DNA of 3,255 nucleotides from a virus (Duplodnaviria > Heunggongvirae > Uroviricota > Caudoviricetes), in IMG/VR virus record IMGVR_UViG_2563366800_000004. The stretch is one strand, 5' to 3'. The stretch's first letter is position 1, and each line of letters starts with the position of its first letter. The position numbers were made by a program, and so were the translations under genes. Positions 1 to 3,255 of the stretch are shown one piece after another. The notes below the pieces were generated by a model. It was not told the origin of the DNA. It worked only from the letters and a program-made list of their open reading frames with translations, and did no database searches.

Positions 1-216
1 ATGAAATCCATGGATAAGTTAACAACGGGCATTGCCTACGGCACCTCCGCAGGCAGTGCTGGCTACTGGTTTTTACAGCTGCTCGATAAAGTCACGCCCT
101 CACAGTGGGCAGCAATAGGTGTGCTGGGTAGCCTGGTATTTGGCCTGCTGACGTACCTGACAAACCTTTATTTCAAGATTAAAGAAGATAAGCGCAAGGC
201 TGCGAGAGGTGAATAA
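1..216 (+). CDS. S: Class II holin (pinholin) of the phage 21 S type, 71 aa, with dual-start motif
   Basis: ORF 1-216 translates to [71 protein letters not shown]. By recall this closely resembles the phage 21 S holin and the essD-type holins of E. coli cryptic prophages. Two in-frame start codons (ATG 1-3 and ATG 10-12) are separated by a Lys codon, giving the Met-Lys-Ser-Met dual-start arrangement. Two hydrophobic segments are followed by a basic C-terminus ([13 protein letters not shown]). The stop TAA (214-216) overlaps the next ATG (216-218). The gene begins at base 1, so its upstream promoter and RBS are not visible. Confidence 0.9.
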
Positions 217-713
217 TGCCTCCATCATTACGAAAAGCCGTTGCTGCTGCTATTGGTGGCGGAGCAATTGCTATAGCATCAGTGTTAATCACTGGCCCAA
301 GTGGTAACGATGGTCTGGAAGGTGTCAGCTACATACCATACAAAGATATCGTTGGCGTATGGACTGTATGTCACGGGCATACAGGAAAAGACATCATTCC
401 CGGTAAAACGTATACCGAAGCAGAATGCAAAGCCCTCCTGAATAAAGACCTTGCCACGGTAGCCAGACAAATTAACCCGTACATCAAAGTCGATATACCG
501 GAAACAACGCGCGGCGCTCTTTACTCGTTCGTCTATAACGTGGGCGCAGGCAATTTCAGAACATCTACTCTTCTTCGCAAAATAAACCAGGGCGATATCA
601 AGGGCGCATGTGACCAGCTACGTCGCTGGGCATACGCTGGCGGTAAGCAATGGAAAGGCCTGATGACTCGTCGTGAGATTGAGCGTGAGGTCTGTTTGTG
701 GGGGCAACAATGA
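216..713 (+). CDS. R: SAR (signal-anchor-release) endolysin, T4-lysozyme-like muramidase, 165 aa
   Basis: ORF 216-713. The N-terminus [27 protein letters not shown] is a Gly/Ala-rich, weakly hydrophobic segment after a short basic stretch, typical of a SAR domain. Counting residues gives Glu35, Asp44 and Thr50 ([18 protein letters not shown]), the spacing of the T4-lysozyme/R21 catalytic triad. A purine-rich RBS GAGAGGTG (203-210) sits 5 nt upstream of the ATG. The start overlaps the holin stop (TAATG). Confidence 0.9.
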
Positions 714-751
714 GCAGGGTACCGGCGATCCGGCGCGTGAGTTCACCATGA
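710..751 (+). pseudogene. Rz (i-spanin) start stump: 13 codons then stop
   Basis: ATG at 710-712 overlaps the endolysin stop TGA (711-713) as ATGA, the usual R/Rz arrangement. The first codons (ATGAGCAGGG, Met-Ser-Arg) resemble the lambda Rz start as I recall it, but the frame stops at 749-751 and the downstream sequence is capsid-gene 3' end. No Rz1 lipoprotein ORF is present. Confidence 0.45.
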
Positions 752-816
752 TTCAGTCAGCACCGCTGATGCTGCTGGCTGATCCTGATGAGTTCGTGTC
801 CGTTCAACTGGCGTAA
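721..816 (+). pseudogene. 3' terminal fragment (about 31 codons) of a lambda-E-like major capsid protein gene
   Basis: In the frame with codons at 724, 727 and onward, the sequence reads GDPAREFTMIQSAPLMLLADPDEFVSVQLA and then TAA (814-816). This matches my recollection of the C-terminus of the lambda major capsid protein gpE. There is no start codon and no upstream capsid sequence; homology appears to begin near 719-724. Confidence 0.6.
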
Positions 817-818
817 TC

Positions 819-836
819 ATGGCCCTTCGGGGCCAT
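819..836. other. Intergenic stem-loop: 7-bp perfect stem ATGGCCC/GGGCCAT closing a TTCG tetraloop
   Basis: Read directly: ATGGCCC (819-825), TTCG (826-829), GGGCCAT (830-836), which are exact reverse complements with a C-G closing pair on a UUCG loop. It lies between the capsid-gene stop (816) and the FI RBS (848-854) and is followed by a moderately T-rich stretch TGTTTCTCTGTGG. Confidence 0.5.
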
Positions 837-857: not shown

Positions 858-1256
858 ATGACGAAAGATGAACTGATTGCCCGTCTCCGCTCGCTGGGTG
901 AACAACTGAACCGTGATGTCAGCCTGACGGGGACGAAAGAAGAACTGGCGCTCCGTGTGGCAGAGCTGAAAGAGGAGCTTGATGACACGGATGAAACTGC
1001 CGGTCAGGACACCCCTCTCAGCCGGGAAAATGTGCTGACCGGACATGAAAATGAGGTGGGATCAGCGCAGCCGGATACCGTGATTCTGGATACGTCTGAA
1101 CTGGTCACGGTCGTGGCACTGGTGAAGCTGCATACTGATGCACTTCACGCCACGCGGGATGAACCTGTGGCATTTGTGCTGCCGGGAACGGCGTTTCGTG
1201 TCTCTGCCGGTGTGGCAGCCGAAATGACAGAGCGCGGCCTGGCCAGAATGCAATAA
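858..1256 (+). CDS. FI: Lambda FI-like DNA-packaging / head assembly accessory protein, 132 aa
   Basis: From ATG 858-860 the protein begins MTKDELIARLRSLGEQLNRDVSLTGTKEELALRVAELKEELDD, which matches my recollection of lambda gpFI; stop TAA at 1254-1256. RBS GGAGGAG (848-854) lies 3-5 nt upstream. The ORF track's longer form from 819 starts inside the hairpin and lacks an RBS, so 858 is preferred. Confidence 0.85.
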   Translation: MTKDELIARLRSLGEQLNRDVSLTGTKEELALRVAELKEELDDTDETAGQDTPLSRENVLTGHENEVGSAQPDTVILDTSELVTVVALVKLHTDALHATRDEPVAFVLPGTAFRVSAGVAAEMTERGLARMQ

Positions 1257-1267
1257 CGGGAGGCGCT

Positions 1268-1621
1268 GTGGCTGATTTCGATAACCTGTTCGATGCTGCC
1301 ATTGCCCGCGCCGATGAAACGATACGCGGGTACATGGGAACGTCAGCCACCATTACATCCGGTGAGCAGTCAGGTGCGGTGATACGTGGTGTTTTTGATG
1401 ACCCTGAAAATATCAGCTATGCCGGACAGGGCGTGCGCGTTGAAGGCTCCAGCCCGTCCCTGTTTGTCCGGACTGATGAGGTGCGGCAGCTGCGGCGTGG
1501 AGACACGCTGACCATCGGTGAGGAAAATTTCTGGGTAGATCGGGTTTCGCCGGATGATGGCGGAAGCTGTCATCTCTGGCTTGGACGGGGCGTACCGCCT
1601 GCCGTTAACCGTCGCCGCTGA
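1268..1621 (+). CDS. FII: Lambda FII-like head-tail joining (head completion) protein, 117 aa, GTG start
   Basis: From GTG 1268-1270 the protein reads MADFDNLFDAAIARADETIRGYMGTSATITSGEQSGAVIRGVFDDPENISYAGQG..., matching my recollection of lambda gpFII (117 aa). RBS GGGAGG (1258-1263) lies 4 nt upstream. Stop TGA at 1619-1621. Confidence 0.85.
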   Translation: MADFDNLFDAAIARADETIRGYMGTSATITSGEQSGAVIRGVFDDPENISYAGQGVRVEGSSPSLFVRTDEVRQLRRGDTLTIGEENFWVDRVSPDDGGSCHLWLGRGVPPAVNRRR

Positions 1622-1632
1622 AAGGGGGATGT

Positions 1633-1761
1633 ATGGCCATAAAAGGTCTTGAGCAGGCCGTTGAAAACCTCAGCCGTATCAGCAGAACGGCGGTGCCCGG
1701 TGCCGCCGCAATGGCCATTAACCGCGCTGACAGACAATACGCAGGGGGCAACAGGTCTTGA
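1633..1761 (+). pseudogene. Truncated lambda Z-like tail-completion gene: about 31 authentic N-terminal codons, then out-of-frame junction sequence and stop
   Basis: ATG 1633-1635 is preceded by AGGGGG (1623-1628). The translation [31 protein letters not shown] matches the lambda gpZ N-terminus as I recall it, then continues as [11 protein letters not shown] and stops at TGA 1759-1761. Intact Z is about 192 aa. Confidence 0.6.
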
Positions 1762-2671
1762 GTTATACGAGGTGTATAACAACGGATATCCAACAGCGTA
1801 TGGAAATATCATTCACCTGAAAGGGATGACAGCCGTTGGCGAAGGTGAGTTACTCATCGGCTGGAGTGGTACAAGCGGTGCTCATGCTCCGGCATTTATT
1901 CGTTCACGACGGGATACGACCGACGCAAACTGGTCGCCGCGGGCGCAGCTTTACACCTCGGCTCATCCTCCTGCAGAGTTTTATCCAGTCGGCGCACCAA
2001 TCCCGTGGCCATCAGATACCGTTCCGTCTGGTTATGCCCTGATGCAGGGGCAGACTTTTGACAAATCTGCCTACCCGAAACTTGCAGCCGCTTATCCGTC
2101 AGGCGTGATCCCTGATATGCGTGGCTGGACGATTAAGGGCAAGCCCGCCAGTGGTCGTGCCGTATTGTCTCAGGAACAGGACGGCATAAAATCGCATACC
2201 CACAGCGCCAGCGCATCCAGTACTGATTTGGGGACGAAAACCACATCGTCGTTTGATTACGGCACTAAATCCACGAATAACACTGGTGCGCATACCCATA
2301 GTTTAAGTGGCAGCACGAATGCAGCTGGTAATCACAGCCATAGAGATGGCCGTCGATTTAACCCCAGTGTTTTTAAAGATACTTATCAATATGGTTATAC
2401 AAGCTCAGGTCAAAATACCTGGGGTGTACAAGGCTCAGTAGGTATGTCTACGGGGGCGTTAGCTAATACCAGTACAGATGGTAATCATAGCCACTCACTG
2501 TCCGGCACCGCAGCATCTGCAGGTGCACACGCACATACTGTCGGTATTGGTGCTCATACGCACTCCGTTGCGATTGGTTCACATGGACACACCATCACCG
2601 TTAACGCTGCTGGTAACGCGGAAAACACCGTCAAAAACATCGCATTTAACTATATTGTGAGGCTTGCATAA
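1727..2671 (+). pseudogene. stf: C-terminal ~314 codons of a side tail fibre (Stf) gene, including the receptor-binding tip with HxH motifs; no start codon of its own
   Basis: The frame with codons at 1730, 1733 and onward reads ...[23 protein letters not shown]...[56 protein letters not shown]...[31 protein letters not shown] and stops at TAA 2669-2671. The PIPWP block and the [11 protein letters not shown] terminus are as I recall for lambda/Rac-type Stf C-termini. The frame stays open upstream only as far as a TTG at 1649 inside the Z stump, with no convincing RBS. The first in-frame ATG (1826-1828) has GGG immediately adjacent, which is poor spacing. Confidence 0.8.
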
Positions 2672-3255
2672 TGGCATTCAGAATGAGTGAACAACCACGG
2701 ACCATAACAATTTATAATCTGCTGGCCGGAACTAATGAATTTATTGGTGAAGGTGATGCATATATTCCGCCTCATACAGGTCTGCCAGCAAACAGTACCG
2801 ATATTGCACCGCCAGATATTCCGGCTGGCTTTGTGGCTGTTTTCAACAGTGATGAGGCATCGTGGCATCTCGTTGAAGATCATCGGGGAAAAACCGTCTA
2901 TGACGTGGCTTCCGGCGACGCGTTATTTATTTCTGAACTTGGCTCGTTACCGGAAAATGTCACCTGGTTATCGCCGGAAGGGGAATATCAGAAGTGGAAC
3001 GGCACAGCCTGGGTGAAGGATACGGAAGCAGAAAAACTGTTCCGGATCCGGGAGGCGGAAGAAACAAAAAACAGCCTGATGCAGGTAGCCAGTGAGCATA
3101 TAGCGCCACTTCAGGATGCTATAGATCTGGAGATCGCAACGGAGGAAGAAACCTCATTGCTGGAAGCCTGGAAAAAATATCGGGTGTTGCTGAACCGTGT
3201 TAATACAACAACTGCACCGGATATTGAATGGCCAACAGTACCCATTATCGAATAG
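2671..3255 (+). CDS. tfa: Tail fibre assembly protein (Tfa), 194 aa
   Basis: ATG 2671-2673 overlaps the stf stop (TAATG). The protein [54 protein letters not shown]...[30 protein letters not shown] matches my recollection of lambda Tfa (orf-194) with scattered substitutions. RBS-like GAGG (2659-2662) lies about 8 nt upstream. Stop TAG at 3253-3255 is the last codon of the window. Confidence 0.9.

Follow-up and report, generated by a model that had tools for sequence, protein, structure and literature searches.

The window, which is the whole stretch of 3,255 nucleotides analyzed here, opens with an intact phage 21-type pair of lysis genes, a holin (S) and an endolysin (R). In all likelihood this pair survives, now probably silent, in a recently decayed and heavily deleted lambdoid prophage that has lost both its spanins and its promoter. 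What is seen at this locus is prophage decay of the ordinary sort, and neither a new kind nor a new variant of lysis system; both proteins are already catalogued alleles. The window holds seven recognizable coding pieces, all of them on the plus strand, and the first two are the lysis genes, with the following features:

1..216, plus strand: class II holin gene of the phage 21 type, from the list of open reading frames and PF04971, with its stop codon TAA at 214-216

10..216, plus strand: short holin product of 68 amino acids starting at Met4, the pinholin form by homology with S21-68

22..81, plus strand: putative first membrane segment of the holin, residues 8-27, with 60% Gly, Ala, Ser, or Thr and no 19-residue window at a KD hydropathy of 1.0

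106..168, plus strand: putative second membrane segment of the holin, residues 36-56, hydrophobic, with a KD maximum of 1.72 at residues 36-54

216..713, plus strand: signal-anchor-release (SAR) endolysin gene, a GH24 lysozyme of the R21/RrrD type (PF00959), 165 amino acids, with its stop codon TGA at 711-713

237..293, plus strand: putative SAR-type segment of the endolysin, residues 8-26, with a KD of 2.11 and 63% Gly, Ala, Ser, or Thr

318..365, plus strand: catalytic motif E35-X8-D44-X5-T50, read off the translation

In a profile search, the holin matches PF04971 ('Bacteriophage P21 holin S') with an E-value of 2.2e-35 and 120.9 bits, at a cutoff of 26; NCBIfam has no specific model for it, and the matches of the endolysin in that collection are all below threshold. 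An identical protein is named 'phage lysis protein EssD' in RefSeq (WP_000839582.1), and the holin shares 62 of its 71 residues (87%) with S of phage 21 and 70 of 71 with S of phage 434. Translated from the ATG at 1-3, the protein has 71 amino acids and corresponds to the antiholin form. The gene opens with ATG AAA TCC ATG (1-12, encoding MKSM), so that a second ATG stands at 10-12. This dual start, correctly read by the earlier note, is shared with phages 21 and 434, whose annotations list an antiholin and a class II holin from the two ATGs, and its role is to provide a longer antiholin and a shorter holin (PMC9636201). With the motif Met1-Lys2-X-Met4 in place, the longer form is predicted to carry an extra N-terminal positive charge. 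By composition and hydropathy only, the holin is also predicted to combine the weakly hydrophobic first segment of the pinholin type, which can exit the membrane, with its stably anchored second segment; the first segment had been described before as rich in Gly and Ala, and residues 8-27 are rich in Gly, Ala, Ser, and Thr, with a KD below 1.0. The pinholin S21-68 forms small heptameric channels of about 2 nm that depolarize the membrane, and not micron-scale holes (PMC9636201). The 87% identity to S21 suggests the same small-channel behavior for the holin of the window.

The endolysin matches PF00959 with an E-value of 8.9e-46 and 155.7 bits in the profile search, and carries the name 'lysozyme RrrD' in RefSeq (WP_001135261.1). 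It is identical at 161 of 165 residues both to RrrD of DLP12 (PDB 4ZPU) and to the endolysin of phage 434, and at 159 of 165 to PDB 3HDE, which, like 3HDF, we take to be a structure of phage 21 R; the genome record of phage 21 independently gave the same 159 of 165. Residues 1-60 are identical to those of phage 21 R, annotated there as a SAR endolysin. The properties expected of a SAR domain were taken from the literature (weakly hydrophobic, rich in Gly and Ala, and without a cleavable signal peptide; PMC9239132), and residues 8-26 are predicted to form such a segment, in keeping with the R21/RrrD type. The catalytic residues follow the pattern E-X8-D-X5-T, the canonical lysozyme triad (PMC9239132). 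Both the SAR-type N terminus and Glu35/Asp44/Thr50, which had been pointed out previously, are confirmed by translation, hydropathy, and identity to phage 21 R, and the hydropathy analysis that had been proposed for the two proteins gave the values listed above for endolysin residues 8-26 and holin residues 36-54. Endolysins of this class are released from the inner membrane and activated upon depolarization by the pinholin (PMC9239132).

The two genes overlap in the sequence TAATG, which holds the stop codon of S and the start codon of R, and the stop codon of R overlaps the next ATG in the sequence ATGA at 710-713. Both reading frames are fully intact, and the translational coupling and the Shine-Dalgarno region, with its predicted hairpin, have been kept. 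When 47 nt at the holin start were folded, a local hairpin was predicted over the ribosome-binding site with a z-score of -2.4, which is suggestive only, and a fold of 91 nt around the same start gave an overall z-score that was not significant. As far as sequence can tell, the pair agrees with the S21 pinholin and R21 SAR-endolysin family in every feature that can be tested.

The order and overlaps of S and R, the MKSM dual start, the SAR segment, and the residues E35/D44/T50 are all the same in phage 21, for which the hairpin at the ribosome-binding site is likewise predicted. However, phage 21 additionally has Rz (153 amino acids) with an embedded Rz1 (60 amino acids), as well as the late promoter pR' and Q, whereas in the window Rz stops after codon 4, there is no Rz1, and an IS3 element replaces everything beyond 87 nt 5' of the holin. 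The closest relatives in sequence are phage 434 and the essD-rrrD(ybcS)-rzpD/rzoD genes of DLP12, which is also a defective prophage with its lysis genes kept; both of them retain the two spanins, while the cassette described here lacks spanins as well as any control region upstream. Lambda shares the head-region DNA and the attachment site, but most of its genome is missing here, and it uses a class I holin and a cytoplasmic transglycosylase in place of the phage 21-type pair.

The loss of the spanins can be followed at the right end of the cassette, where the remnant of Rz is fused to lambda head genes, and these in turn to tail fiber genes. Some of the assignments rely on a sister relic in strain 2020CK-00188, which is described below. 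The features from this point to the end of the window are:

710..721, plus strand: remnant of the i-spanin gene Rz, ATGAGCAGGGTA, encoding Met-Ser-Arg-Val, from alignment with the Rz genes of phages 434 and 21 and of the sister relic

710..751, plus strand: open reading frame of 13 codons, not a gene

721..816, plus strand: final 96 bases of E, the major capsid gene of lambda (lambda 7065-7160), a partial coding sequence in RefSeq

819..836, plus strand: terminator-like hairpin, GC-rich and with a T-rich stretch on its 3' side, close behind the E stop codon, from a consensus scan

858..1256, plus strand: lambda FI, DNA packaging protein, intact (PF14000, E = 4.8e-59; annotation; lambda identity)

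1268..1621, plus strand: lambda FII, head-tail joining protein, intact (PF05354, E = 9.7e-20; annotation)

1633..1726, plus strand: first 31 codons or so of the lambda tail gene Z (PF06763, residues 3-32)

1719..2671, plus strand: 3' part of the side tail fiber gene stf (PF07484 and PF03335; a partial coding sequence in RefSeq; alignment)

2671..3255, plus strand: tail fiber assembly gene tfa, intact (PF02413, E = 2.2e-43; WP_016245830.1)

The homology to Rz ends after 720/721, and a megablast alignment reaches 729 solely through imperfect similarity. The earlier note had described Rz/Rz1 as reduced to 13 codons; the open reading frame at 710-751 does have that length, but only 4 of its codons derive from Rz, the other 9 being out-of-frame codons of the capsid gene E. 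The junction reads GGGTA/CCGGCGAT, where the slash marks the join, and is accompanied by an imperfect short homology between GGGTAACCGCGAT in Rz and GGGTGACCACCGGCGAT in E. On the lambda map, the deletion measures about 9.6 kb, running from Rz at 45966 to the cos end at 48502 and from 1 to 7064, and it has removed Rz, Rz1, bor, cos, and the genes from Nu1 through most of E.

The two components of Rz/Rz1 and a unimolecular spanin or other outer-membrane disruptor were looked for. The i-spanin (PF03245), which normally has an N-terminal membrane segment and a periplasmic coiled coil, is down to the 12 bases, or 4 codons, of the Rz remnant. For the o-spanin (PF06085), a small proline-rich lipoprotein of the outer membrane whose gene lies within Rz or overlaps it, a scan of all open reading frames on either strand of the whole window found none with a lipobox, and a blastn comparison of the Rz-to-J region of a relative against the 43-kb locus found no similar Rz/Rz1 DNA. 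For a unimolecular spanin, in which one open reading frame combines a lipoprotein signal with a C-terminal membrane segment, the same lipobox scan was negative, and the downstream open reading frames all belong to E', FI, FII, Z', stf', or tfa (a prime denoting a fragment). The earlier statement that the cassette contains no spanin genes is therefore upheld by both searches. The sister relic in strain 2020CK-00188 occupies the same chromosomal site, adjoins the same diguanylate cyclase gene, and is the same prophage eroded in a different way. Its EssD and RrrD proteins have the same RefSeq accessions as those of the window, the DNA differing at 2 of 816 bases, and they are followed by an Rz of 155 amino acids (PF03245, 3.8e-29) in which Rz1 is embedded (PF06085, 2e-21). 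Since a sister relic with the same S and R proteins keeps Rz/Rz1, the spanin-less state of the window is derived by deletion. The prophage relic has undergone several illegitimate deletions, and the absence of the spanins goes back to one of them, not to a feature of design.

Another of these joins lies further downstream, where the Z fragment meets the interior of stf through a shared octamer, TAACCGCG (1719-1726). After the common AACCGCG, lambda Z continues with TTGCT and the window with CTGAC, and the homology to the sister relic begins at 1719. The stf part has no N terminus and is out of frame with the Z fragment. Chimeric joins like Rz/E and Z/stf might be produced by the mis-assembly of prophage repeats, as lambdoid prophage sequence is repeated in E. 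coli genomes (in a median of 4 places per genome), and among 5426 complete E. coli genomes just one contains the full window with the Rz/E junction, that of strain PCP06171 from Galapagos seawater, with a mismatch at position 1918. Nevertheless, there is hardly any chance that these joins are artifacts: the 3255 bases are 100% identical in four independent draft assemblies made years apart, among them GCA_000408625.1, and the short homologies at the junctions are typical of illegitimate recombination. With PCP06171 the carriers amount to five, and a junction common to five assemblies effectively refutes an assembly error.

In PCP06171, the relic is found between ybhC and ybhB/bioA, which is the lambda attachment site, and the lambda att core, GCTTTTTTATACTAA, stands in an exact copy on either side of it, the two being 8.5 kb apart. 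Its genes follow the order int and xis (at the left end), two small genes, IS3, holin, endolysin, E fragment, FI, FII, and Z fragment, and then stf fragment, tfa, and a MASE4-GGDEF diguanylate cyclase gene. In each of the five carrier assemblies, the IS3 element is complete (1258 bp) and stops 87 nt short of the holin ATG, with its transposase genes directed away from the holin. In GCA_000408625.1 the element is bordered by a 3-bp target duplication, GTT, which indicates a simple insertion. There is no duplication in PCP06171, where the far flank reads CTT and a truncated early-region gene abuts the element, pointing to a further deletion beside IS3.

The position of IS3 bears directly on the expression of the pair. 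In phage 21, pR' lies 325 nt 5' of S and is preceded by Q; with only 87 nt left here, pR' and Q must have been cut off or deleted. A functional lambdoid late lysis operon lies 3' of pR' and depends on Q, and what is found instead is IS3 at 87 nt and no Q gene annotated in the 8.5-kb relic. When the coding strand was scanned over a stretch that starts 500 nt 5' of the holin and reaches into stf, by consensus match only, no sigma-70-like site was detected, and inspection by eye of the 87-nt stub together with the IS3 end gave at best 3 of 6 hexamer matches. A strong sigma-70 promoter 5' of the holin is thus rejected, weak ones being another matter: weak, alternative-sigma, or IS3-derived outward transcription may occur and would be compatible with a scan of this kind. 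The earlier note considered that the cassette looks functional, and this holds for the reading frames, which are intact, but not for the control region, given the proximity of IS3, the loss of pR' and Q, and the lack of a promoter-like site.

The history shown by these observations starts from an ancestral late lysis operon S-R-Rz/Rz1 of the phage 21/434/DLP12 type, of which positions 1-751 are the surviving left part. The illegitimate deletion of about 9.6 kb, between the imperfect short homologies, joined codon 4 of Rz to the final 96 bases of E, and a second deletion fused codon 31 of Z to the middle of stf. By entering 87 nt before the holin start, IS3 cut S and R off from pR' and from antitermination by Q, and in one genome an extra deletion beside IS3 took everything back to the xis-proximal region. 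The reading frames would then be intact because the losses are recent, and not through a new role of the pair. The holin and endolysin genes are probably silent; their intact frames and coupling fit recent silence, although they fit continued use equally well. Under this reading of plain decay, the locus has little import beyond its correct annotation, as S and R belong to the best-studied pinholin/SAR-endolysin system, but it does offer a tidy natural case of a prophage eroding step by step, in which three junctions are mapped and an IS3 has inserted.

Continued use could mean that the pair has been domesticated as a spanin-less module, with a cryptic or IS3-associated promoter driving low-level transcription, and that it serves host wall turnover, vesicle release, or stress lysis, in the way proposed for the lysis module of DLP12; the loss of the spanins would make such a module less dangerous. 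We consider this improbable. Cryptic lysis cassettes are not always inert, as seen from DLP12, whose lysis genes are reported to be under the control of Q, RpoE, and Hha (PMC7918800). For K-12, reports describe expression of these genes and an influence on the turnover of the wall and the production of vesicles (PMC7918800, PMC12287860). The reported effects of DLP12 essD/rrrD(ybcS)/rzpD-rzoD on vesicle production and wall integrity (PMC7918800, PMC12287860) speak for a domesticated pair here too, as do the intact frames, translational coupling, and ribosome-binding region, and the capacity of SAR endolysins for slow spontaneous escape from the membrane when no holin is present (PMC9239132). 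Moreover, no fewer than five assemblies, drawn from different sources, carry the arrangement. These carriers, however, are 100% identical or one base apart, so that its persistence reflects clonal descent and not demonstrated selection. Domestication is further opposed by the upstream region without a promoter-like site, the IS3 transposase genes facing away from the holin, the occurrence in a single one of the 5426 complete genomes, and the debris that surrounds the pair (the E, Z, and stf fragments). The related assembly L008, finally, has kept the Rz/E junction and lost the holin and most of the endolysin, with the first 526 bases of the window gone, which argues against a need to retain the pair. 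A more specific proposal, in which weak transcription from an IS3-boundary promoter or by an alternative sigma factor makes the pair a host-controlled, non-explosive device for wall remodeling or vesicle promotion, is more improbable still. If it were true, the locus would represent a naturally occurring halfway stage between a phage lysis cassette and a tamed one, and, were expression shown, a natural spanin-less counterpart to the domestication of DLP12.

Besides the relic at the lambda site, PCP06171 holds a Rac relic about 670 kb away, which consists of a 5'-truncated rrrD followed by an intact Rz of 154 amino acids, with an Rz1 of 61 amino acids embedded in it and bearing a VVGC lipobox. 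One and the same genome has S-R without Rz/Rz1 in one relic and Rz/Rz1 without S-R in the other. DLP12 is absent from this strain, argU being joined to cusF by IS1, and was accordingly rejected as a source of spanins in trans.

A split lysis system could be built from the two relics, with the lambda-site relic providing the holin and endolysin and Rac the spanins in trans, so that co-expression would lead to full lysis. The intact Rz with its embedded Rz1 in Rac makes this conceivable, and the provision of spanins in trans is an established experimental design, since a study of phage Mu used a plasmid carrying lambda RzRz1 apart from the holin and endolysin plasmids (PMC9239132). Yet the two loci, besides being some 670 kb apart, belong to separate transcripts, neither relic has a recognizable late promoter or Q, and two independent relics are the simplest reading; a split system has only a very slim probability. 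According to the earlier note, a spanin equivalent elsewhere in the same transcript would have spoken against its account of the cassette. None was found, as the Rz/Rz1 genes of Rac lie off the S-R transcript.

If the pair in the decayed prophage were transcribed after all, the consequences can be anticipated from related systems. By analogy with phage 21, the 71-residue form would restrain or delay the 68-residue pinholin, whose small channels would, at triggering, make the membrane potential collapse (PMC9636201); the tethered SAR endolysin would then be released and degrade the wall (PMC9239132). Without spanins, the outer membrane would be expected to hold, giving rounded, dead cells and no clean lysis (PMC9239132). 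Indeed, when the outer membrane is stabilized by 10 mM Mg2+, lysis needs spanins and cells turn spherical (PMC9239132). The spherical cells and vesiculation suggested by the earlier note are in this sense a sound conditional drawn from established spanin genetics, but nothing indicates that the genes are expressed. The same genotype, a holin and an endolysin without spanins, is found in spanin-defective lambda Rz/Rz1 mutants and in the DLP12 rzpD/rzoD deletion. These are, however, laboratory alleles in expressed operons, whereas the deletion in the window is natural and lies in a relic where no promoter is visible. The DLP12 rzpD/rzoD deletion in K-12 is the nearest experimental analog, and it changed vesicle-associated porin only 1.7-fold (PMC7918800).

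Downstream of the Rz/E junction, positions 721-1729 of the window, which run from the 3' end of E through FI and FII to the 5' end of Z, are 99.4% identical to lambda 7065-8073. The terminator-like hairpin at 819-836 falls inside this stretch and is native lambda intergenic sequence.

The ribosome-binding site of the dual-start holin gene lies within a predicted hairpin, for which equivalents are predicted in two phages:

L001 (the PCP06171 locus holding the window) 19971-19996, upstream of window position 1: predicted hairpin in which the holin ribosome-binding site GGAGGUG pairs with an upstream CACC.AUCC
L002 (phage 434) 2474-2495: equivalent predicted hairpin
L015 (phage 21) 1337-1362: equivalent predicted hairpin

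The structure at the PCP06171 locus has a predicted folding energy of -14.9 kcal/mol (z = -2.4), and the stem sequences in phages 434 and 21 differ from it. These folding predictions are consistent with a conserved element for translational control of the dual-start holin. The less eroded relatives carry additional genes directly before the holin:

L004 (sister relic at the same site, strain 2020CK-00188) 55-2813: lipocalin gene, YbgA-like gene (PF04463/PF08349), and AraC-type regulator
L007 (GCA_000408625.1) 993-3734: the same three genes

In phage 434 and DLP12, this position is instead held by the porin gene nmpC, and the cargo in this slot between Q and S therefore appears to vary.

At the other end of the lysis cassette, a GC-rich hairpin with a T-rich run after it resembles a terminator:

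Window 819-836: terminator-like hairpin, directly after the E stop codon

This hairpin is native lambda intergenic sequence, and might stop the lysis-gene transcript before FI, if any such transcript passed. A single mismatch, a G/A difference at position 1918, separates the window from the RefSeq record of PCP06171, while GCA_000408625.1 and three other draft assemblies are identical to the window.

In three different relics, different upstream genes are fused to nearly the same point of stf:

Window 1711-1765: join of Z codon 31 to stf via the shared octamer TAACCGCG
L004 5730-5740: join of the J interior to stf, within about 3 bases of the same octamer
L003 (relic at the Qin site) 3990-4000: join of Z to stf, 45 bp further in

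The three end points thus cluster within about 50 bp, which could reflect either nested deletions related by descent or a recombination-prone site.

The Rac relic of PCP06171 holds the mirror image, in the same genome, of the window's cassette, with Rz/Rz1 intact and rrrD truncated:

L017 28644-29437, minus strand: 5'-truncated rrrD, followed by intact Rz (154 aa) with embedded Rz1 (61 aa, lipobox VVGC)

In GCA_027673655.1 (L008 1-5860), the window's sequence from position 527 onward is fused directly to Rac-type genes (recE-like, a truncated lysozyme, Rz, trkG, ParB-like, and a J fragment). This junction suggests that a large rearrangement took place between the Rac and attB-lambda relics, with loss of the holin and of the greater part of the endolysin.

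Immediately to the right of the window, and still within the relic, a gene separates tfa from the right att core:

L001 23329-24660, minus strand: MASE4-GGDEF diguanylate cyclase, 443 aa (PF17158, 7e-36; PF00990, 3.5e-44)

The gene is also present in L004 and L007-L014, being kept in every relative at the attB-lambda site. It has the look of prophage cargo, could influence c-di-GMP signaling in the host, and may be the reason for the persistence of the relic's right end.

At the DLP12 site, PCP06171 lacks the DLP12 prophage and the neighboring genes up to cusF (L006 41266-42224). In the same interval, IS1, together with a small HTH gene fragment, adjoins the tRNA-Arg gene argU, an arrangement which suggests that the loss was an IS1-mediated deletion.
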